Shown here piece by piece: positions 1 to 7,032 of a stretch of DNA of 7,032 bases; the first letter of the stretch is position 1; the number at the start of each line of letters is the position of its first letter. The notes under the pieces are model-generated. The model worked only from the letters and a program-made list of their open reading frames with translations. It was not told where the DNA came from and did no database searches. Source of the stretch: a virus (lineage: Duplodnaviria; Heunggongvirae; Uroviricota; Caudoviricetes); the IMG/VR virus record IMGVR_UViG_648276650_000006; one strand, written 5' to 3'. The position numbers and the translations under genes are program-made.

Positions 1-32
1 GCGGGGGCGGGGGGGGGGGGGGGGGGGGGGGG
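1..32. repeat. Homopolymeric poly-G tract at the window edge, probably a sequencing or assembly artefact
   Basis: Seen in sequence: GCGGGGGC followed by an uninterrupted run of about 24 G (9..32) at the extreme 5' end, with no coding or structural context. Confidence 0.5.
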
Positions 33-62
33 CTTTGGGAATATGCGGGTGTGGGGAGATTG

Positions 63-473
63 TCAGTAACCGGTTTGTACCTTATACAGCCGCAGGGTTT
101 TGCTGCCCCGAACAATCTTCACATACAGGGCATTATCTTCCGCGCTGCGTACAAAACCGGCCTTCACATCGCCCTTACAGTCACCACCATCGTAAGGAAC
201 ATTGATGCCGGTCTGGCGCACCAGGTCGATAATCCCGAAGCTTAAATCTTCACAGGCTGGGCCCGGCAGGTCCTGAATCAGGGCAAATTTATGGTCGTCG
301 CTGACACCGGTCAGTGAGCACATGGACGTATTGATGTCGTTTCCCTGGCACCAGTACTCCTGGCCGGGATTGTCTTTATCCATCAGACTTGCCGGAAGCT
401 GAGCGGCACCGGCACTGAAGGCGGCAAGTGACAGAATGAGGGCAGGTACAGCAGAGGTCATTATTTTCAGCAT
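63..473 (-). CDS. Small secreted/periplasmic 4-Cys protein with N-terminal signal peptide (YfjT/YkfB-like, tentative)
   Basis: 136-aa ORF. N-terminus MLKIMTSAVPALILSLAAFSAGAA-QLP has the n/h/c layout of a Sec signal peptide with an AxA-type cleavage site. AGGAAG Shine-Dalgarno lies 6 nt upstream of the ATG at 473. Mature part has 4 Cys, including W-C-x9-C. Family name is from recollection, not a search. Confidence 0.6.
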   Translation of the reverse strand: MLKIMTSAVPALILSLAAFSAGAAQLPASLMDKDNPGQEYWCQGNDINTSMCSLTGVSDDHKFALIQDLPGPACEDLSFGIIDLVRQTGINVPYDGGDCKGDVKAGFVRSAEDNALYVKIVRGSKTLRLYKVQTGY

Positions 474-539
474 GGTCTTCTTCCTGAATTAATCCAGCCC
501 GCTGTCGGGCAAAATGAGAGAGGTTGATATCGGGTGTTA

Positions 540-977
540 TCAGAAGCGCCGGTAGCGAAACAGCTCTTTGCCCTGGTAAAGTGCCACCAGGTCGTCATAT
601 TCCGGCTTCTTCTGGTTGGGTTTAAAGGTCACTACCGTGCCCGGACGGCACAGGTCTTTTACGGTGAGTCCGTATTTCTTGTCCGGAGTAATGGTGAATC
701 CTTTCGACACATCGTTGCGCATGATAGTTATCCAGCCCCACAGGCCGCCTTCGCAGTCTTTAAAGGGTGCGGAACGCACCGTGACCATCCCGCCCAGGCG
801 GTCAACAGACATGGCTTCGCATTTTCCGGTAACCTGACGATGCGCATCGCACCAGAAAATGTTCCCGTTGTTGTCATTAACTACAGCAGGGAGGGTCCGG
901 TTATAAGGCTGAGCCTGAGCGCCCACACAGAGCAGAAGGCTGCCGGTAATACCCAGTACTTTAATCAGTGTTTTCAT
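540..977 (-). CDS. Small secreted 4-Cys protein with signal peptide, paralogous to the 63..473 product (YfjS/YafY-like, tentative)
   Basis: The track ORF 540..1103 starts at a GTG and would overlap the upstream gene by 85 nt. The internal ATG at 975..977 has an AGGA 8 nt upstream, leaves a 41-nt intergenic gap, and gives MKTLIKVLGITGSLLLCVGAQA-QP, a typical signal peptide. Shares the W-C-x9-C pattern with the neighbouring ORF. Confidence 0.55.
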   Translation of the reverse strand: MKTLIKVLGITGSLLLCVGAQAQPYNRTLPAVVNDNNGNIFWCDAHRQVTGKCEAMSVDRLGGMVTVRSAPFKDCEGGLWGWITIMRNDVSKGFTITPDKKYGLTVKDLCRPGTVVTFKPNQKKPEYDDLVALYQGKELFRYRRF

Positions 978-1018
978 TACGTTGGTCCTAAACAGAGAAA
1001 GAATCAGGTAGCGGTCAT

Positions 1019-1555
1019 TCAGGCCCAGACAGTCAGGGCCAGCATCAAAAGCCATACCCAGAAGTAAGCCGGTTTCTGACCGAGAGTTTTCGCCCGCCGC
1101 CACAGATAGAACGGCACCAGCCAGGCCAGTTTGCCGAACGTGGTGGTGTCCACTCCGGCCTTACGCAGGCGTCGTTCATCGAGATACCCCAGAGCAATAT
1201 TGAGCAGCAGCGTGATAAACCAGTACTGCCCACCCGAGACGGCATCATATGCCTCGTCAAATGACATCCCGCTCAATCCTGCAGTCCACAACTCCAGCGC
1301 GTAGCCAATGAAGGGAGCAAATGCCAGCGTCCACACAACGCCACCCGGAATGCGGTTCCCCGGCAGCGCTGGTGGTGTGGTGCTCCGGAGCAGCGTCGAA
1401 GCCAGCGGAGTAGCGGAGACCGGCTGCCACTCTGCCATTCCCTGTCGCCACACCAGAGTGGATGCAGTCAGTTCACCGCGCATAATCAGGCTGGTGATGT
1501 CGTCTTCGGTCACATTGTCGTGGCGTATGCCATTTTTCTCGTAATGCCAGGTCAT
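1019..1555 (-). CDS. Membrane protein with N-terminal DUF4339 (GYF-like) domain and hydrophobic C-terminal half
   Basis: 178-aa ORF. N-terminus WHYEKNGIRHDNVTEDDITSLIMRGELTASTLVWRQGMAEWQP matches the DUF4339 pattern as I recall it (W-Y..G...GP/V..L..L...G.L...TLVW..GM..W.P). C-terminal half has several hydrophobic stretches (DUF2628-like by recollection). AAGGA Shine-Dalgarno about 6 nt upstream of the ATG at 1555; 25-nt gap to the upstream regulator stop. Confidence 0.6.
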   Translation of the reverse strand: MTWHYEKNGIRHDNVTEDDITSLIMRGELTASTLVWRQGMAEWQPVSATPLASTLLRSTTPPALPGNRIPGGVVWTLAFAPFIGYALELWTAGLSGMSFDEAYDAVSGGQYWFITLLLNIALGYLDERRLRKAGVDTTTFGKLAWLVPFYLWRRAKTLGQKPAYFWVWLLMLALTVWA

Positions 1556-1580
1556 TGTTTTTCCTTCTTAACAGAGGTAA

Positions 1581-2204
1581 TTAAATCAGTGTGTTGCCCG
1601 GCTCCTCCTCTGAGGGCCCAGGAGACAGGACTTCACGGATACAGCTGAAGTGCGGAAGGGCCCGGATAAAGCCCGCCTGTGTGGTTAACTGGCTGAGACG
1701 TTTTAGCGGGGTGAAAGTTGTATTGAGGACTGTCACCGCATGGATGGTCGCCAGTGGATGCACGGTGATATGCCCGTTAAGTTCACCGGTGAGGTACCAG
1801 CAGCCGTCGAGTGATATCAGGCGGTACGGGGCCAGTCCGTCACAGCGCTCTCCCTCAGCCAGCAGCAGTACCCGTTGGCAGGCGGTAATAGCACTGACGA
1901 GACGGTAGAACACCAGTGAGGTGGCCGGTGATATAGTCTGTGGCGGTTGCCACACCAGACAGGGCATCCCTCCTGCTGTGAGCAGCATGCCCGCCAGACG
2001 CCGGTCCAGCCCCGGAAAGATATCGGCCAGTCCGGACCGGTGAGCAAAGGTCAGCGCATCCAGCTCACCCTGTACGCCCCCACTGGTGCTGCGCAGGCGG
2101 CATTGCCCTCGTCGATACTCCAGGTCCAGATACATCAGCCGTTCGCGAAAATCCCGTCGCAGGGTACGGACTGACACACTAAACTCTGCAGCCAGCCGGG
2201 CCAT
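1581..2204 (-). CDS. yfjR: HTH (DeoR-type) + WYL-domain transcriptional regulator, YfjR-like; coordinates are the longest canonical-start ORF, which appears N-terminally truncated
   Basis: ORF contains the HTH recognition region LAAEFSVSVRTLRRDF and a literal WYL motif (LDGCWYLTGELNGH). The frame stays open 29 codons upstream (to 2291), encoding (I)TQAERRHDRLAVRLSLIISRLVAGETLN, which completes helix 1 of the HTH. That stretch has no ATG/GTG/TTG; it begins at an ATA codon (2289..2291) with GGAG 7 nt upstream. Symbol is by family recollection; paralogues in other islands are possible. Confidence 0.55.
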   Translation of the reverse strand: MARLAAEFSVSVRTLRRDFRERLMYLDLEYRRGQCRLRSTSGGVQGELDALTFAHRSGLADIFPGLDRRLAGMLLTAGGMPCLVWQPPQTISPATSLVFYRLVSAITACQRVLLLAEGERCDGLAPYRLISLDGCWYLTGELNGHITVHPLATIHAVTVLNTTFTPLKRLSQLTTQAGFIRALPHFSCIREVLSPGPSEEEPGNTLI

Positions 2205-2499
2205 GTTCAGCGTCTCACCGGCAACCAGGCGGCTGATTATCAGTGACAGCCTGACAGCCAGTCGGTCGTGACGGCGCTCTGCCTGTGTTATCTCAAATCT
2301 CCGTAATAATTAACTGACTGAATATGAAATGATTCTAAAGAGGGGGGCGGACAGGGTATGGACATGGAATGAACTATTTTTTATCTGCCACCGGAGGCAA
2401 GCCCAACGCGGCGCACCGTGAAATACGGTGATAAAACACTCAATCCAATGGAGGTAAAACGGACAGGGAGTGTCCTTTCCCAACATGCTGATAACAAGC

Positions 2500-3324
2500 T
2501 CAGGACTGAAACCCACTCAGCATCGCTTCCGCCATCACCCAGAGAGCCCGGTTGAGCTTCACATCGCCGTCGATACCACGCACGGCGCGGGTGTGTGTTC
2601 GCCCACCTTTTGCACTCCGGCCACTGAGCCCGCCCTTAATCAGGTTCTCCTGAATACGCTGGTATGTGGTCCACAGGTCATTGCTCTCATCCTGCCAGCG
2701 GCGTGGGGAGAGTATCTGAGGTGCTGTCACCGGCTGGTGGTCCTCACCAAAACGGTACGTCAGTGCAGCCTGTGCCAGAGCCTGTTGTGCAGGTGGCGGC
2801 AGCATCAGCGACTGCATGGCATCCCGCTTCTCTTCCACACGGTCAAAAATACCCAGCACTTCATACGCCCCCTCAATCACCTGACTCACGACATCTCCTT
2901 TGTGCGGTACCCGCACCTCGCCGAACGATTCACCGCAGACAAGCCCGTTCTGGCATACCGCACGGAATAATCCCGGTAACATCTGATACGAGCTGGTGCC
3001 GTCATGAGAATTGAGCAGAATGATTTCTGGGACTTGCTTGCCAGTAATTTGTCCCTCCCGGCGCAGACGTAACATATGCTTTGTATGCTCGCGACGCCCT
3101 GGGTCACGCACCCGGGTCTGGCAGGCAAAGAAAGGCTGAAAGCCTTCACACTGCAGATTTTCAAGAACGGTAATGGTTGGTATCCAGGTATACCGTGCGC
3201 TACGAGACGCATGCTTCTCCTCGCTGAAGACACTGGGCACTACACGAAACAGCTCTTCCTGGGTTAACGGACGGTCACGACGAATAAGGTTTGCTGCGCC
3301 AAAGCGCGAAGCCAGACGGGTCAT
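2500..3324 (-). CDS. yfjQ: DUF932-family protein (YfjQ/YafZ-like)
   Basis: 274-aa product from the second in-frame ATG (3322..3324), which has a perfect AGGAG 7 nt upstream; the track start at 3339 lacks an SD. N-terminus MTRLASRFGAANLIRRDRPLTQEELFRVVPSVF matches my recollection of YfjQ/YafZ proteins, and length is close to the ~273 aa I recall. Lies directly after a GTPase gene as in CP4-57-type islands. Confidence 0.6.
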   Translation of the reverse strand: MTRLASRFGAANLIRRDRPLTQEELFRVVPSVFSEEKHASRSARYTWIPTITVLENLQCEGFQPFFACQTRVRDPGRREHTKHMLRLRREGQITGKQVPEIILLNSHDGTSSYQMLPGLFRAVCQNGLVCGESFGEVRVPHKGDVVSQVIEGAYEVLGIFDRVEEKRDAMQSLMLPPPAQQALAQAALTYRFGEDHQPVTAPQILSPRRWQDESNDLWTTYQRIQENLIKGGLSGRSAKGGRTHTRAVRGIDGDVKLNRALWVMAEAMLSGFQS

Positions 3325-3350
3325 AAGCAGACTCCTCATGATGGAAAATT

Positions 3351-3387
3351 AAATACAAAAAGCCCCGCCGCAAAATCGCGGCAGGGC
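3351..3387 (-). terminator. Rho-independent terminator-like hairpin between the GTPase and DUF932 genes
   Basis: Minus-strand RNA: stem GCCCUGCCGC / loop / GCGGCGGGGC (10 bp, one mismatch; plus 3362..3387), followed 3' by UUUUUGUAUUU (plus-strand A-run 3351..3361). Begins about 30 nt after the GTPase stop and ends about 25 nt before the DUF932 start. Confidence 0.55.
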
Positions 3388-3418
3388 TCAGGAAACTACG
3401 GGTTAGAAGGGTTAATGT

Positions 3419-4282
3419 TCAGAAGAAGAAATTCCAGACTGCACGGGCGACTGATACCACGATGTCGCGCACAGACTGGATGACTGACCGAACCTGGGCC
3501 GGTATCAGGGGCATGGAACTTACTGTATCCAGTACCGAGCCGACCGTTTCACCAAAATCGTCACGGGCTTTTTTATTAACGGCATCGGTACGAAGTGGCG
3601 CACTGAGTTGTACTGCCACCTGACTACTGGCCTCCCGTGGCAAGCAACGAATCATCCGCTCAGCCATCATCCGCAGCCCCCACTGCAAACGTATCGACAC
3701 CGCACAGACAGGGTTTACAGGTTGGAACAACTCATGCAGCAGACAGATTTTGAGGCTGATATTTCGTTTCTGCTCTGTAGACAGCTTTTCACCACCGCAG
3801 GTGGGTTCAACCTTGTCAGACTGGCTGATAACAAACAACACCTTATGCCGGTATGCTTCACCAATCACCTGCCGGTAAAAATGTTCATCTACGGCCAGCG
3901 CCCGATCATCACCCTTAATCAACCACAGAACCAGATCCAGCTGGGGGAGCTGTTTACGGTACAGCGTGGCATACTCTGTATCCCGGCGCTCAGACTCCCC
4001 GACGCCGGGTAAATCCACCAGCGTCATAAAGCGCTTCCCCACTTGCAGGCGAAAGCGTAAGGGTTCGCGTGTGCAGGCGGTCACATCGCTGACCGGTGAA
4101 ATCTCACCGGTAAACAGGGCATTACATAAGCTGCTCTTGCCCGAGCCAGTTTTACCCATGATGCCAATCACCGGCTCATAGTCAGTAAGCTGATTTATCT
4201 GCTGCAGAATACGCTCTGATGCCCAGTGCGGCAGGTTAGAAAGCGAATGCTGCAGTGACTGTAAACCTTCAAATTGATTCAT
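3419..4282 (-). CDS. yfjP: P-loop GTPase of the YfjP/YkfA/YeeP family (50S ribosome-binding GTPase-like domain)
   Basis: 287-aa ORF. Walker A/G1 GIMGKTGSGKSS, G3-like DLPG. AGGAG Shine-Dalgarno 5 nt upstream of the ATG at 4280..4282. Length matches what I recall for YfjP/YkfA (287 aa). The yfjP versus ykfA assignment rests on the downstream DUF932 and WYL-regulator order and is not certain. Confidence 0.7.
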   Translation of the reverse strand: MNQFEGLQSLQHSLSNLPHWASERILQQINQLTDYEPVIGIMGKTGSGKSSLCNALFTGEISPVSDVTACTREPLRFRLQVGKRFMTLVDLPGVGESERRDTEYATLYRKQLPQLDLVLWLIKGDDRALAVDEHFYRQVIGEAYRHKVLFVISQSDKVEPTCGGEKLSTEQKRNISLKICLLHELFQPVNPVCAVSIRLQWGLRMMAERMIRCLPREASSQVAVQLSAPLRTDAVNKKARDDFGETVGSVLDTVSSMPLIPAQVRSVIQSVRDIVVSVARAVWNFFF

Positions 4283-4300
4283 TACTGCTCCTCTGAAATG

Positions 4301-4335
4301 AAAACAAAAAAGGCAAGACCGTGAGGTTCTGCCTT
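4301..4335 (-). terminator. Terminator-like hairpin plus U-tract in the leader immediately upstream of the GTPase gene
   Basis: Minus-strand RNA: about 11-bp stem (plus 4310..4320 pairing with 4325..4335; one mismatch, one wobble), loop GUGA, followed 3' by UUUUUUGUUUUC (plus A-run 4301..4311), then the AGGAG SD and ATG. It faces transcripts entering from the AT-rich cargo side. Confidence 0.5.
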
Positions 4336-4384
4336 TAATGAGGTATGTTCAGGGGAATGATATATATCTGAATATTTTTAGAAT

Positions 4385-4430
4385 GCTGATAGGCCGTTCT
4401 GTGCCAGGAGCGGACGTTGCGAACGCTTTG
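4385..4430. repeat. Left copy of a degenerate ~46-bp direct repeat (core GTGCCAGGAGCGGAC)
   Basis: Manual alignment to 5363..5408 at a constant offset of 978 bp: core 15-mer 14/15 identical, flanks 9/16 and 7/15, about 30/46 overall. Located in the divergent intergenic region upstream of the Toprim gene. Confidence 0.45.
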
Positions 4431-4570
4431 AGACTGATGATCATTTCAGATGTTAATTAATTAAAGGCATGGTAATGTTTAGGCTCTGTAGGGTAAATTT
4501 CCCGCAGTATTTTCGGTTATCAATAGCTTGTGGAGTTAACTCTCAGAGGGGGCAGTTAGTGGGAACAACA

Positions 4571-5269
4571 ATGGAGGACATCCAATACGAAGAAATGTTA
4601 AATGAGCTTCTATTCGAAAAAGTAATGAAGAATGAAGCAAAAAAACAATGCATTTACATTTTTGTCGAAGGTGAGTCTGAAGAACTTGCTTTTCAACCCT
4701 TACTTGAAGACTGTGGTATAGATTTCGATAAGCTTGGTATTGTAATTGCAAATTACAATGGGATTGGTAACTTAAAACACGCCATAAGACTTCTACATAA
4801 AACATTGAGCCATGATCGACCAATAATAGTAACGTATGATGATGATCATGAAGGAAAAATAATAAAGAAAATAAATAGCCCATTGATCACATACTTTAAA
4901 ATACCATTTAGCCCTGTAGTTTCTTATAATGATGGAACTTTAGGCGGAACATTTGAAGAAAGCTTTCCTAAAGATTGCTTTATAGAAGCTTGCTTTCAGC
5001 AAAATGTTATAGCTAGTTCTTTTTTATCAAAACGTAATGACTTTGAAAAAAAATTCAATCCAACTCAGCCATGGTTAGCTCAATTAGCACAATTCATTTC
5101 TTCCAATGGTGGGACTCCTAATTCTATAAATAAAACAAAATTAGCTGAAAACATGATGCTTTCAGTATCTCAGATACCTGAAACCTATAATGAGTTAGCA
5201 AAGTTAATCATTGATATTAGAAACAAGACCCCAATAAAACACCCTGAAAATGTAGATTTGAATTTGTAA
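4571..5269 (+). CDS. Standalone Toprim-domain protein, a putative nuclease with an OLD/AriB-like catalytic core
   Basis: 232 aa from the ATG at 4571, where G+C content drops; the track ORF begins at ATG 4469, which is an alternative start. Toprim signature seen directly: hydrophobic strand IYIFVEGESEE with E33, and IIVTYDDDHEGK with D90-x-D92-x-x-G95. No Walker A motif in this ORF or in any adjacent ORF. Markedly AT-rich with A/T-ending codons, unlike the backbone. Confidence 0.6.
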   Translation: MEDIQYEEMLNELLFEKVMKNEAKKQCIYIFVEGESEELAFQPLLEDCGIDFDKLGIVIANYNGIGNLKHAIRLLHKTLSHDRPIIVTYDDDHEGKIIKKINSPLITYFKIPFSPVVSYNDGTLGGTFEESFPKDCFIEACFQQNVIASSFLSKRNDFEKKFNPTQPWLAQLAQFISSNGGTPNSINKTKLAENMMLSVSQIPETYNELAKLIIDIRNKTPIKHPENVDLNL

Positions 5270-5362
5270 ATAATACTATTTATTTTCACGCACTGATTTT
5301 TCCGCGTTTGGTAGGTATTATCGCAACGTCCTATTTTCACTCATAGCTGCCCTACCTACCTT

Positions 5363-5408
5363 CTTGATGGGCAGCTTCGTGCCAGAAGCGGACATAGCAT
5401 CCGCTAAA
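5363..5408. repeat. Right copy of the degenerate ~46-bp direct repeat (core GTGCCAGAAGCGGAC)
   Basis: See the left copy at 4385..4430. This copy lies about 95 nt downstream of the Toprim gene stop and contains a small hairpin, AGCGGA / loop CATAGCA / TCCGCT. Confidence 0.45.
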
Positions 5409-5790
5409 GTAAAAGCAGGCGTTAATACCTGTGAGGGGTAAAAACGCGCATCGATTAACAAGAGTAACTGTAGTGATTCACAATCATGAAAAAATTTTCT
5501 TTATACAGAATAAGAAGCCATTTAATATGGTTAGAAGATTTAATTTAAGAGTAAATTATATATAATATATGGCTAATTAACTTATGTTAATGGAACTATA
5601 AAATGAAAACTTCAATGAGTTAATCGGTGGATTAAATAAATATATCGTTCCTGGACTTCAGAGAGATAAGACTAATGATTTTCAAAAATAGATTTCTGAA
5701 CAAGCAGTGAAAGTGTGGGGTGTTAACTAATACATCAAGATATACTTTAAACGGATAATATATAAAGTCACAATCAAAGGTAGATGAAAA

Positions 5791-6813
5791 ATGTTAGACT
5801 TAGAATATGCTGTAACTGAGCCTTTTTTAAATTACCATTTATTTCATGAAGGATTAAATACGAAGGTTAAGGTTTTAACCTCATCACTTAATCATGTGAT
5901 TGAATATTTATTGACGCCAGGCAATGAAAATAAAATGAATGAGCTCATTAAGAAAACTGATAAATCTTGGCAATTCCCGCCGAATTTTTCACTTCCAAGC
6001 CCTCCAGTTGATGAATCAAATTTAAAAAATAAAACATCATCAAGAAGACTAGATAAGGAAGAGGATAATAATGAATTAGATTATCAATTAAAGAAAAAGG
6101 AATTAGCGCAAGAGATGTTGTATTGGTATGTAAGTGAAATGGCTATATTTGGCACTTTTTCTGCTTTGGATGATTGTATTGTCGATATTGATTCTTGGTT
6201 TTCAAGTTGGGCAATGTTTAATAACACTCAAGATAAAAAATCGGAATCAACCAGTAGTAACAAAATTGAAAGGTTATATGATTCACACGAATGGAACATG
6301 AAGAACATAAAGACATTCCTTCCGATTTATGAGTATTTTTCAGCAGTTAGAAATTCAATAGCTCATAGGCAATCCAAAGCATCTCATAAGTTATCAGAGA
6401 TATCAAAATCCCAAGAATTAAAAGAGTCAGTAGAGAGAAACTTCCCAAAAGGTAAACCATTAAGTGAATTTGAATATAATGAAGATATATTCATCTCTCC
6501 AAAAACGTCGTTGCTTTGTTCTCACATAATAAGATTAATTTTCGAAGATATCAATAAATACATCATAAAAAAAATGGGTATTGAAGGTATCATCTACATG
6601 TCATGCAAACTTGCATTTGAACCATCATCTTATAATGAAAGCAAAGTTGTTAACTTAGCTAGAAATAGATTGAACGAAATCGTTAGTGGTCGATATCATG
6701 TAATTATAAAAGGTGAGGATGAAGCCGTTAAGGTTGCTGAGTCACTTGGCATTTGGCGTGATTGCGCTAAATTTCATGCGAACAATATGAGGAAATTAGA
6801 TCCAAAATTCTAA
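5791..6813 (+). CDS. Hypothetical 340-aa protein with an R-x4-H (RNSIAH) HEPN-like motif; candidate Abi-like RNase
   Basis: Long uninterrupted AT-rich ORF. AAGG lies about 10 nt upstream of the ATG, a weak SD. No P-loop. The single motif R187-N-S-I-A-H192 (nt 6349..6366) has the RNxxAH form common in HEPN RNases, within a predicted helical stretch (FLPIYEYFSAVRNSIAHRQ). The CDS call is stronger than the functional call, which rests on one short motif. Confidence 0.6.
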   Translation: MLDLEYAVTEPFLNYHLFHEGLNTKVKVLTSSLNHVIEYLLTPGNENKMNELIKKTDKSWQFPPNFSLPSPPVDESNLKNKTSSRRLDKEEDNNELDYQLKKKELAQEMLYWYVSEMAIFGTFSALDDCIVDIDSWFSSWAMFNNTQDKKSESTSSNKIERLYDSHEWNMKNIKTFLPIYEYFSAVRNSIAHRQSKASHKLSEISKSQELKESVERNFPKGKPLSEFEYNEDIFISPKTSLLCSHIIRLIFEDINKYIIKKMGIEGIIYMSCKLAFEPSSYNESKVVNLARNRLNEIVSGRYHVIIKGEDEAVKVAESLGIWRDCAKFHANNMRKLDPKF

Positions 6814-6899
6814 CCTTATCGCGAAATAATTTATGTGCCAGAGTTTCCCTGGCGCTATTGCGATAATGTTTTATTGGCCTATGCCTCGCAGATTAACAC

Positions 6900-6928
6900 A
6901 GGGCGATGTTAAAAGTCGCCCTTTATAG
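6900..6928 (+). terminator. Candidate intrinsic terminator downstream of the HEPN-like gene
   Basis: Plus strand: stem (A)GGGCGA / 9-nt loop / TCGCCC(T), followed by TTTATAG; about 90 nt after the stop at 6813. Short stem and weak U-tract. Confidence 0.35.
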
Positions 6929-7032
6929 TCAGAACAGATTCCTACTTCCGCTCCTCGCTCATAGCAGACCTTCAGATCCGGGAGGGTGTCCGCTTAGTGC
7001 TGTGAGTTCAACTGATGGACGCAACACACTTA

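Follow-up and report, generated by a model that had tools for sequence, protein, structure and literature searches.

Two single-gene nuclease-type cassettes in a candidate recombinase-exchanged cargo array beside a yfjP-like GTPase gene of Escherichia coli

The 7,032-nt stretch of DNA analysed here in full (IMG/VR record IMGVR_UViG_648276650_000006, classified in the Caudoviricetes; "the window" below) is identical (100%) to part of the Escherichia coli MS 115-1 chromosome (NZ_CP146665.1) and carries, next to a yfjP-like GTPase gene, two genes for a Toprim protein (gene 1) and a HEPN-domain protein (gene 2). A preliminary description, made by a model from the sequence alone, had proposed these genes as a candidate two-component defence module or, failing that, as two independent single-gene defences, and it is the fallback that fits the evidence: the two genes are probably independent, single-gene nuclease-type cassettes in a site-bounded array, the likely agent of whose exchange is an Xer-like recombinase. 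Mechanistically, we posit that window positions 4392-7000 represent the first two units of a tandem gene-cassette array that would have entered a 24-bp site beside the GTPase gene, in the CP4-57-type island of MS 115-1, by site-specific recombination. Unit 1 (~4408-5385) would hold one gene, encoding the 236-aa OLD-type Toprim protein, and unit 2 (~5386-6995) one gene, encoding the 340-aa HEPN protein, together with a leader of ~400 nt, with each cassette bounded by a site of one type (t1) at one side and an inverted site of a second type (t2) at the other (Table 1).

Structurally, the sites are 24 bp long with a 7-10-7 layout, in which perfect inverted arms (GTCCGCT/AGCGGAC) enclose an asymmetric 10-nt centre: t1 reads GTCCGCT-ctGTGCCAGg-AGCGGAC and t2 reads GTCCGCT-gtGAGCGAGg-AGCGGAa. 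Repeats border both genes in the window, one of 41 nt at 4387-4427 and 5365-5405, with inverted relatives of it at 5326-5353 and 6944-6975, and the limits of homology to other genomes fall at these places. The conserved backbone ends at the leftmost t1 site, where megablast matches to other E. coli stop (window 4414-4424), and homology to strain PAR covers 4401-5329 and ends in the degenerate t2-type site, a similarly degenerate sequence also following the Toprim gene in PAR and Morganella. The gene-2 cassette is shared with Klebsiella (locus L009) over 5374-6977 and with a P4-like satellite (L013) over 5381-6972; in these two and in a third locus (L037) homology starts at the t1 site that opens the cassette, with diverging left flanks, and five copies are identical up to the closing t2 site and divergent beyond it. 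Contrary to the preliminary description, which had backbone-like sequence resuming from about 6830, positions 6814-6977 belong to the gene-2 cassette, whose conserved 3' end they form, with 96.6% identity to its Klebsiella copy.

Beyond the window, 36 distinct t1 and 28 distinct t2 sites were collected from 18 Enterobacterales loci (site-bearing loci L001, L002, L004-L009, L013, L017, L018, L025, L037 and L043-L045), and 10 loci totalling 190 kb contained 38 sites against ~1.6 expected from shuffled sequence. The two types lie on opposite strands in all loci but one, regardless of the orientation of the cargo genes; the exceptions to this rule are three matches with two mismatches each, namely a palindromic site in L018, a likely chance match in L045 and the reversed strands of K-12. 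Cassette junctions take the form t2(reverse complement)-CTTCAG-N(8-16)-t1. The sites separate cargo in a P2-like prophage (in the variable region that lies between its tail-fibre-assembly and tail-sheath genes), in a lambdoid prophage, in a P4-like satellite, in Klebsiella and in further islands, and they occur in the GTPase hotspot of sequence type 131, which has a reverse-transcriptase gene; they were absent from the Toprim loci scanned outside the Enterobacterales.

Table 1. Positions of genes and boundary sites in the window
Feature	Position	Strand	Remark
YfjP-like GTPase gene	3419..4282	-	backbone gene adjoining the hotspot; MMR_HSR1 E=6.5e-15
t1 site, GGCCGTT-CTGTGCCAGG-AGCGGAC-GT	4392..4417	+	left junction of the ~11-kb cargo array
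Gene 1, OLD-type Toprim protein, no ATPase domain	4559..5269	+	PF20469; RefSeq start
Degenerate t2-type site (reverse complement), closes the Toprim cassette	5326..5353	+	repeat relation to 6944-6975
t1 site, GGCAGCT-TCGTGCCAGA-AGCGGAC, opens the gene-2 cassette	5370..5393	+	
AT-rich 5' region of gene 2 (~400-nt leader)	5394..5790	+	common to all cassette copies
Gene 2, 340-aa all-alpha protein with a HEPN domain (R187-N-S-I-A-H192)	5791..6813	+	
t2 site, GTCTGCT-ATGAGCGAGG-AGCGGAA on the minus strand, closes the gene-2 cassette	6944..6970	-	
Left half of the next t1 site (GTCCGCTTAGTGC), split by ISCfr4	6988..7000	+	
ISCfr4 end: terminal inverted repeat TGTGAGTTCAACTGATGGACGCAACA and 3' end of the transposase gene	7001..7032	-	

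An empty counterpart of the array is present in strain HH107, whose version of this island runs from the GTPase gene straight to a cation-diffusion-facilitator (CDF) transporter gene and has, at that position, a single site (ggccgtTCTGTGCCAGAAGCGGACTT). The HH107 match runs to window position 4418 and resumes at position 26186 of the MS 115-1 locus (L001), with an overlap of 20 nt (HH107, L003 8116-8135, compared with MS 115-1, L001 15116-15135 and 26185-26204). The left junction in MS 115-1 reads ggccgtTCTGTGCCAG-GAGCGGACGT and the right junction cagcagcCCTGTGCCAG-AAGCGGACTT, so that, relative to HH107, chromosomal and insert arms are swapped about a central TGTGCCAG. We infer from these junctions a crossover inside TGTGCCAG, the arm swap being as expected of tyrosine-recombinase strand exchange. 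The MS 115-1 insert of ~11 kb holds at least four cargo units plus a recombinase gene, in the order Toprim gene, HEPN gene, a t1 site split by the insertion sequence (IS) ISCfr4, a DinB gene, an AAA ATPase with a Cap4-type nuclease and, further on, the gene for a 200-aa recombinase followed by t1.

This 200-aa, Xer-like tyrosine recombinase is likely the enzyme that exchanges the cassettes. Encoded at L001 25558-26160 in MS 115-1, ~9 kb past the window end, and again at L006 11057-11659, at L007 10607-11209 and in L043-L045, it consists of the catalytic domain only: PF00589 (Phage_integrase) is its single Pfam match, the best NCBIfam models (XerA/XerC) score far below their cut-offs, and the catalytic residues R, HxxR, H and Y are present. 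The gene, taken together with ~60 nt of flanking DNA at either end, was found in 904 of the 5426 complete E. coli genomes (17%), among them 42 places on plasmids. All six loci scanned have a conserved t1-type site (gcaacagcagcCCTGTGCCAG) 3' of the gene, and a t2-type site was detected upstream of it in three of the six.

The distribution of genes 1 and 2 indicates that they move independently and are not partners. The preliminary description had looked to co-occurrence in other genomes as a check on its two-component module; the pair, however, was found only in MS 115-1 and in one Enterobacter contig, either gene is found elsewhere on its own, and each is bounded by sites of its own, the 521-nt gap between the genes containing a full pair. 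Both genes together, like the whole 4283-7032 stretch, are present in one of the 5426 complete E. coli genomes (MS 115-1). In the contig of Enterobacter sp. Bisph1 the Toprim protein is 100% identical and the order of the GTPase and DUF932 genes is the same, and this is therefore the same island and not an independent association. Strain PAR has the Toprim unit (81% nucleotide identity over window 4401-5329) beside the GTPase gene, followed by an unrelated gene and then Dsr1. The gene-2 unit, at 86-97% nucleotide identity, stands after a GIY-YIG gene and before McrBC in K. quasipneumoniae, next to Gabija in the P4-like satellite, and at a chromosomal site near flavorubredoxin/reductase-type genes; of the proteins with 84-88% identity to gene 2, one is encoded 64 nt after GmrSD and one after a type I restriction-modification operon. 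More distant homologues lie in a phage-like contig (54%) and at the end of a P2-like prophage (35%), and relatives also occur in plasmid islands. No stand-alone Toprim gene was found beside gene-2 copies (84-98% identity) in these other settings, and the 299-aa and 301-aa proteins encoded beside Toprim in Morganella and PAR were rejected as hidden members of the gene-2 family (hhalign probability <1%).

Gene 1 encodes a stand-alone OLD-type Toprim protein, and the Toprim signature reported in the preliminary description stands: Pfam OLD-like_TOPRIM (PF20469) matches at E=1.8e-9, with 38.4 bits against a curated cut-off of 23.2, and E33, D90 and D92 are invariant in family alignments of both 35 and 56 sequences. 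The full set of invariant residues in the family alignment comprises E33, N61, Y62, G64, N67, D90, D92, G125, G126 and E130, and the metal-binding set (E33, D90xD92 and E129E130) is intact. In hhalign comparisons the Toprim core aligns with GajA residues 413-512, pairing EGESEE...DDD with EGDSEE...DLD, and the PADLOC matches, all weak, were to GajA (its Toprim part), mad4 and HEC-01B. A profile search against the PDB gave one marginal match, to the class 2 OLD protein 6nk8 (E=0.11). The domain begins at residue 25 and is followed by a C-terminal helical region of ~100 aa that matches no named family. As for its start, the protein would measure 236 aa from GTG 4559 and 232 aa from ATG 4571; the former, which is RefSeq's choice, is most likely, because most aligned family members begin MGTT/MATT-x-EDI, matching V-G-T-T-M-E-D-I in the window. 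A 266-aa reading from 4469 was unsupported.

The absence of a partner ATPase, also noted previously, is confirmed, as gene 1 has neither an ATPase domain nor an adjacent ATPase gene. No ATPase family appeared among its Pfam, PADLOC and other family matches (the protein itself was not scanned for a Walker A motif), its neighbours in MS 115-1 are the GTPase gene and gene 2 only, and its relatives (at least 129 clusters, ~235 aa each) are all stand-alone. With one genome taken per species, the family was followed in 20 loci (19 in other species), ranging over Enterobacterales, Desulfobacterota, Chlorobi, Akkermansiaceae, Thermodesulfovibrionales, Bipolaricaulota and an Altiarchaeales genome. Clustering of all neighbouring open reading frames (ORFs) in these loci revealed no recurrent neighbour, and Pfam and PADLOC scans of 135 neighbours no common family; gene 1 is thus an orphan OLD-type Toprim protein. 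An ATPase partner for the family was rejected, with only three AAA_21/mad3 matches among the neighbours. The neighbours with a Walker A motif were two proteins of ~230 aa with an ABC-transporter-type P-loop and one OLD/AriA-like (AAA_21-type) ATPase, the latter near the Toprim gene in one of the 19 other loci (a metagenome-assembled genome, 776 nt away). Defence genes are scattered near the homologues, including those for a dGTPase, a type II restriction enzyme, DpdJ, Old, PD-T4-6, MkoA and a reverse transcriptase.

Gene 2, on its motif and predicted fold, is a HEPN-domain protein of a family that has no curated model. Pfam, NCBIfam and PHROG returned no match, and PADLOC only faint HEPN matches (Csx1 and CARF_HEPN, E about 3e-3). 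Close relatives are few (24 clusters, mostly from Klebsiella), and an exhaustive HMMER search extended the family to 154 clusters (E<=1e-3), the majority with lengths of 300-330 aa. The HEPN-like motif seen earlier in this protein proved conserved: R187 and H192, together with W60, are invariant in 45 family members (19-55% identity to the query), the Rx4-6H motif takes the form RNCIAHR in the family, and the protein has an alpha-helical bundle fold. Metal-independent ribonuclease (RNase) activity is predicted. Specific to the family are the N-terminal ~100 aa (TEPF...FHE...W60) and a nearly invariant FSAxDD motif. A Foldseek search of the whole-protein fold against the PDB found no match (best E=1.3), and a sequence-profile search against the PDB returned nothing. 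The AT-rich region upstream is presumably the promoter and leader of gene 2 and contains no small ORF that is conserved; a 20-codon ORF within it (5487-5549) was rejected as a gene, its ATG start being deleted in L013. No Rfam family matched the window at E<=1, and the long leader therefore contains no known RNA antitoxin or riboswitch.

Functionally, a role in defence may be proposed for gene 1 or gene 2 from genomic context only. Each protein could act as a self-contained, nuclease-type anti-phage or abortive-infection effector: the gene 1 product would act on tRNA or DNA as a Mg2+-dependent nuclease, in the manner of the Toprim domains of OLD, AriB and GajA, and the gene 2 product would be a metal-independent RNase whose active site would form on dimerisation. 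The analogy for Toprim nuclease action is provided by P2 Old and AriB (PMC12445682, PMC11464382). In both proteins, non-catalytic parts of the same polypeptide would restrain the activity, and the low G+C content may add silencing by H-NS.

Several observations weigh against this reading and should be set beside it. The defence role is an argument by association, and genes for DinB, DHFR-family and CBS-domain proteins also occupy cassettes at the same sites, so that not all of the cargo is defensive. Lacking a visible regulator, an orphan Toprim or HEPN nuclease poses a problem of self-toxicity; the Toprim fold is assigned from one Pfam match plus motif conservation, the single-sequence AlphaFold2 model being unusable (predicted local distance difference test score 36.5); and recombination at the sites is deduced from junction sequences, with the t2 site after the Toprim gene degenerate. 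Finally, the two genes adjoin in two genera, so cooperation within this island is possible.

Three other explanations can be weighed against these data. That the boundary repeats are conserved hairpins of another kind, such as repetitive extragenic palindromic (REP)-like sequences, terminators or IS targets, with the cargo swapped by short-homology recombination, seems somewhat unlikely. Paired junction sites do fold as long imperfect hairpins when single-stranded (z-scores -2.6 to -4.0), elements of the IS30 and IS110 families have inserted in or next to them, as at REP sequences, and P2 and lambdoid phages carry efficient recombination functions. However, the sites were detected in one or two copies per genome in 474 of the 5426 genomes, and a genome-wide class of REP sequences or bacterial interspersed mosaic elements (BIMEs) was rejected on this copy number; the hairpins are followed by no T-run; and the 7-10-7 layout with asymmetric centre, fixed polarity and central crossover is that of a tyrosine-recombinase core site, with a small, catalytically complete recombinase travelling alongside. 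Unlikely, too, is that the genes are cassette cargo with no part in phage defence, whether selfish toxins or addiction modules, functions of the element itself or decaying passengers. This would suit the DinB, DHFR-family and CBS-domain cargo, the lack of a PADLOC system match and the absence of both proteins from 50,697 phage genomes, and toxin-antitoxin cassettes are known in integron arrays. Against it, both reading frames are intact, the catalytic residues are invariant across families spanning many phyla, which argues for selection on activity, neither cassette has a candidate antitoxin gene, and the contexts elsewhere are mostly restriction, Gabija, retron and prophage-cargo positions.

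Least probable by far is that the Toprim and HEPN proteins form one two-component abortive-infection module, as a sensor and a killer or as a joint nuclease pair. The genes are adjacent, co-oriented and similarly AT-rich, the pair is present in E. coli MS 115-1 and Enterobacter sp. Bisph1, and both domains are common effectors of conflict systems, but a pair of boundary sites lies in the gap between them, the Enterobacter contig offers no independent association, all other copies of either gene lack the other, and the Toprim-adjacent genes of PAR and Morganella are unrelated to the gene-2 family. Independent single-gene cassettes thus remain the reading that we prefer.

Among known systems, neither protein matches one in PADLOC-DB v2, and membership tests upheld the earlier statement that the pair is not PARIS, Gabija or OLD. 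Gene 1 shares with the OLD nucleases (P2 Old, GajA and the retron Eco8 effector) and AriB the OLD-type Toprim domain with its catalytic Glu, DxD and acidic pair, and it occupies a hotspot of the sort in which these systems are found. In each of the four OLD classes described, Toprim is coupled to an ATPase (PMC10568477), whereas gene 1 lacks the N-terminal ABC-type ATPase domain of classes 1-3. It differs from PARIS in having no adjacent ariA-type ATPase gene and no match to an AriB/DUF4435 model at E<=1 (Pfam, PADLOC), and from Gabija in that the cassette has no helicase or ATPase gene and the GajA matches are confined to the Toprim part (model positions ~380-480). As for MADS, the mad4 match is weak (E=5.9e-5) and the MS 115-1 locus has no other mad genes. 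Gene 2 differs from the HEPN defence RNases (RnlA/LsoA, AbiD/F, ApeA, HepT, Csm6/Csx1 and HepS) in matching no curated family and having no antitoxin gene; with regard to RnlA-RnlB and LsoA-LsoB in particular, it has no RnlA family match and no ORF lies between it and t2.

The array as a whole resembles integrons in its tandem, mostly one-gene units, in an array-borne tyrosine recombinase with a special site beside it, and in junction elements that are imperfectly palindromic and fold as hairpins; its defence cargo also resembles that reported in chromosomal integrons (bioRxiv 10.1101/2024.07.02.601686). It differs from them in that the recombinase is a 200-aa, Xer-like catalytic domain and not IntI, that the 24-bp 7-10-7 sites are of two types with no visible resemblance to attC and its R/L boxes (IntegronFinder was not applied), that the cassettes have long leaders of their own, and that the arrays sit inside prophages, satellites and islands. 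Similar modules are the pdif modules of Acinetobacter plasmids, in which cargo is bounded by short Xer sites in alternating, inverted orientation. In contrast to these, however, the present sites are apparently unrelated to dif, a dedicated small recombinase would take the place of host XerC/XerD, and the setting is chromosomal and prophage hotspots in Enterobacterales.

The site upstream of yfjP had been described as a hotspot for variable cargo and as the position equivalent to that of rnlAB, and both statements agree with our comparisons. Other strains hold different cargo there, including retron Eco8, kinase plus TIR genes, a reverse-transcriptase gene (annotated as an RNA-directed DNA polymerase), Dsr1, or nothing. 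The K-12 genes rnlA-rnlB lie on the same, promoter-proximal side of yfjP, and the positional analogy therefore holds; the window GTPase is 78.7% identical to K-12 YfjP over 287 aa, and the intergenic DNA common to K-12 and the window is limited to ~100 nt next to the GTPase gene. Compositionally, the abrupt change in G+C content that had been noticed is evident in 300-nt windows, with 0.50-0.64 over 1-4200, 0.27-0.37 over 4650-6750 and a step from about 0.55 to about 0.31 near 4300; the two AT-rich plus-strand ORFs (4571-5269 and 5791-6813), divergent from the GTPase gene, are likewise present as claimed.

It is tentatively possible that the t1/t2 sites and the 200-aa recombinase constitute an undescribed cassette-exchange system of Enterobacterales, in which the Toprim and HEPN genes are two single-gene nuclease defence cassettes. 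A search of the open literature (subscription journals lay mostly outside it) found neither the sites nor the recombinase nor either protein described. Papers on P2/P4 hotspots and E. coli defence islands describe the variability of cargo, leave the exchange mechanism open and call the movement of systems between hotspots unclear (PMC9122126; PMC10121019; bioRxiv 10.64898/2026.02.27.708500). To this question the sharp boundaries, the empty and filled sites and the co-travelling recombinase would bring a concrete, testable mechanism, through which single defence genes and small operons would move among otherwise unrelated hotspots, namely those of the P2 tail region, of P4-like satellites, of lambdoid prophages and of CP4-57-type islands, and chromosomal sites in Klebsiella; the t1/t2 sites would also serve as a signature to delimit cargo units and to mine new defence genes. 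The sites and recombinase are the more novel lead compared with the gene pair. Both genes are uncharacterised variants of known nuclease effector classes, and the pair adds two candidates to the nuclease-type defence genes. The gene-2 HEPN family is probably missed by current defence finders, and a working orphan Toprim protein would raise the question of its restraint and trigger.

Some further observations concern the array and its surroundings. ISCfr4 (IS30 family; window 6988-7032, L001 17719-18954) has inserted exactly in the centre of a t1 site (GTCCGCTTAGTGC / IS / GCCAGGAGCAGAC) with an apparent 2-bp duplication (GC); the other half of the site (GCCAGGAGCAGACAT) lies beyond it at L001 18940, and the IS30-like transposase annotation and IS30 megablast matches begin at window 6987. 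In MS 115-1 an IS110-family element, ISEsa2, adjoins a t2 site whose HH107 counterpart (L003 10398-10417) is intact. Further along the insert, at L001 19842-23840, the unit with an AAA ATPase and a DUF4297/Cap4-type nuclease (E=9e-51) has its ATPase gene split by IS3, and is probably an inactivated defence system. In Morganella (L025 5831-7786) and PAR (L002 10001-12312) the site after the Toprim gene has decayed, leaving this gene and an unrelated ~300-aa gene together in a single t1...t2 interval; neighbouring cassettes have apparently fused here as the site between them eroded.

In the CP4-57 element of K-12 MG1655, no t1 site lies between rnlB and yfjP; a t1-like site with the window's tgataggccgttct flank is found on the other strand several kb away, between yfjW and ypjI (L046 19413-19426), a position that suggests rearrangement of the hotspot in CP4-57. 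Within the window itself, consensus promoter matches did not exceed those in shuffled sequence (12 versus 12.4), terminator-like sites numbered three against 1.2 expected, and the gene at the YfjR position (1581-2291, minus strand) encodes a WYL-type regulator (PADLOC WYL, E=1e-11; weak Pfam HTH and WYL matches) of 236 aa in RefSeq, the ORF from ATG being shorter (207 aa). Lastly, upstream of the gene-2 copy in the P4-like satellite, two unannotated genes (320 and 333 aa; L013 5383-7362) occupy a site-bounded unit of their own, the first of them weakly matching HEPN/RES N-terminal domain 1 (E=1.8e-4), and this two-gene unit may be another uncharacterised cargo system.

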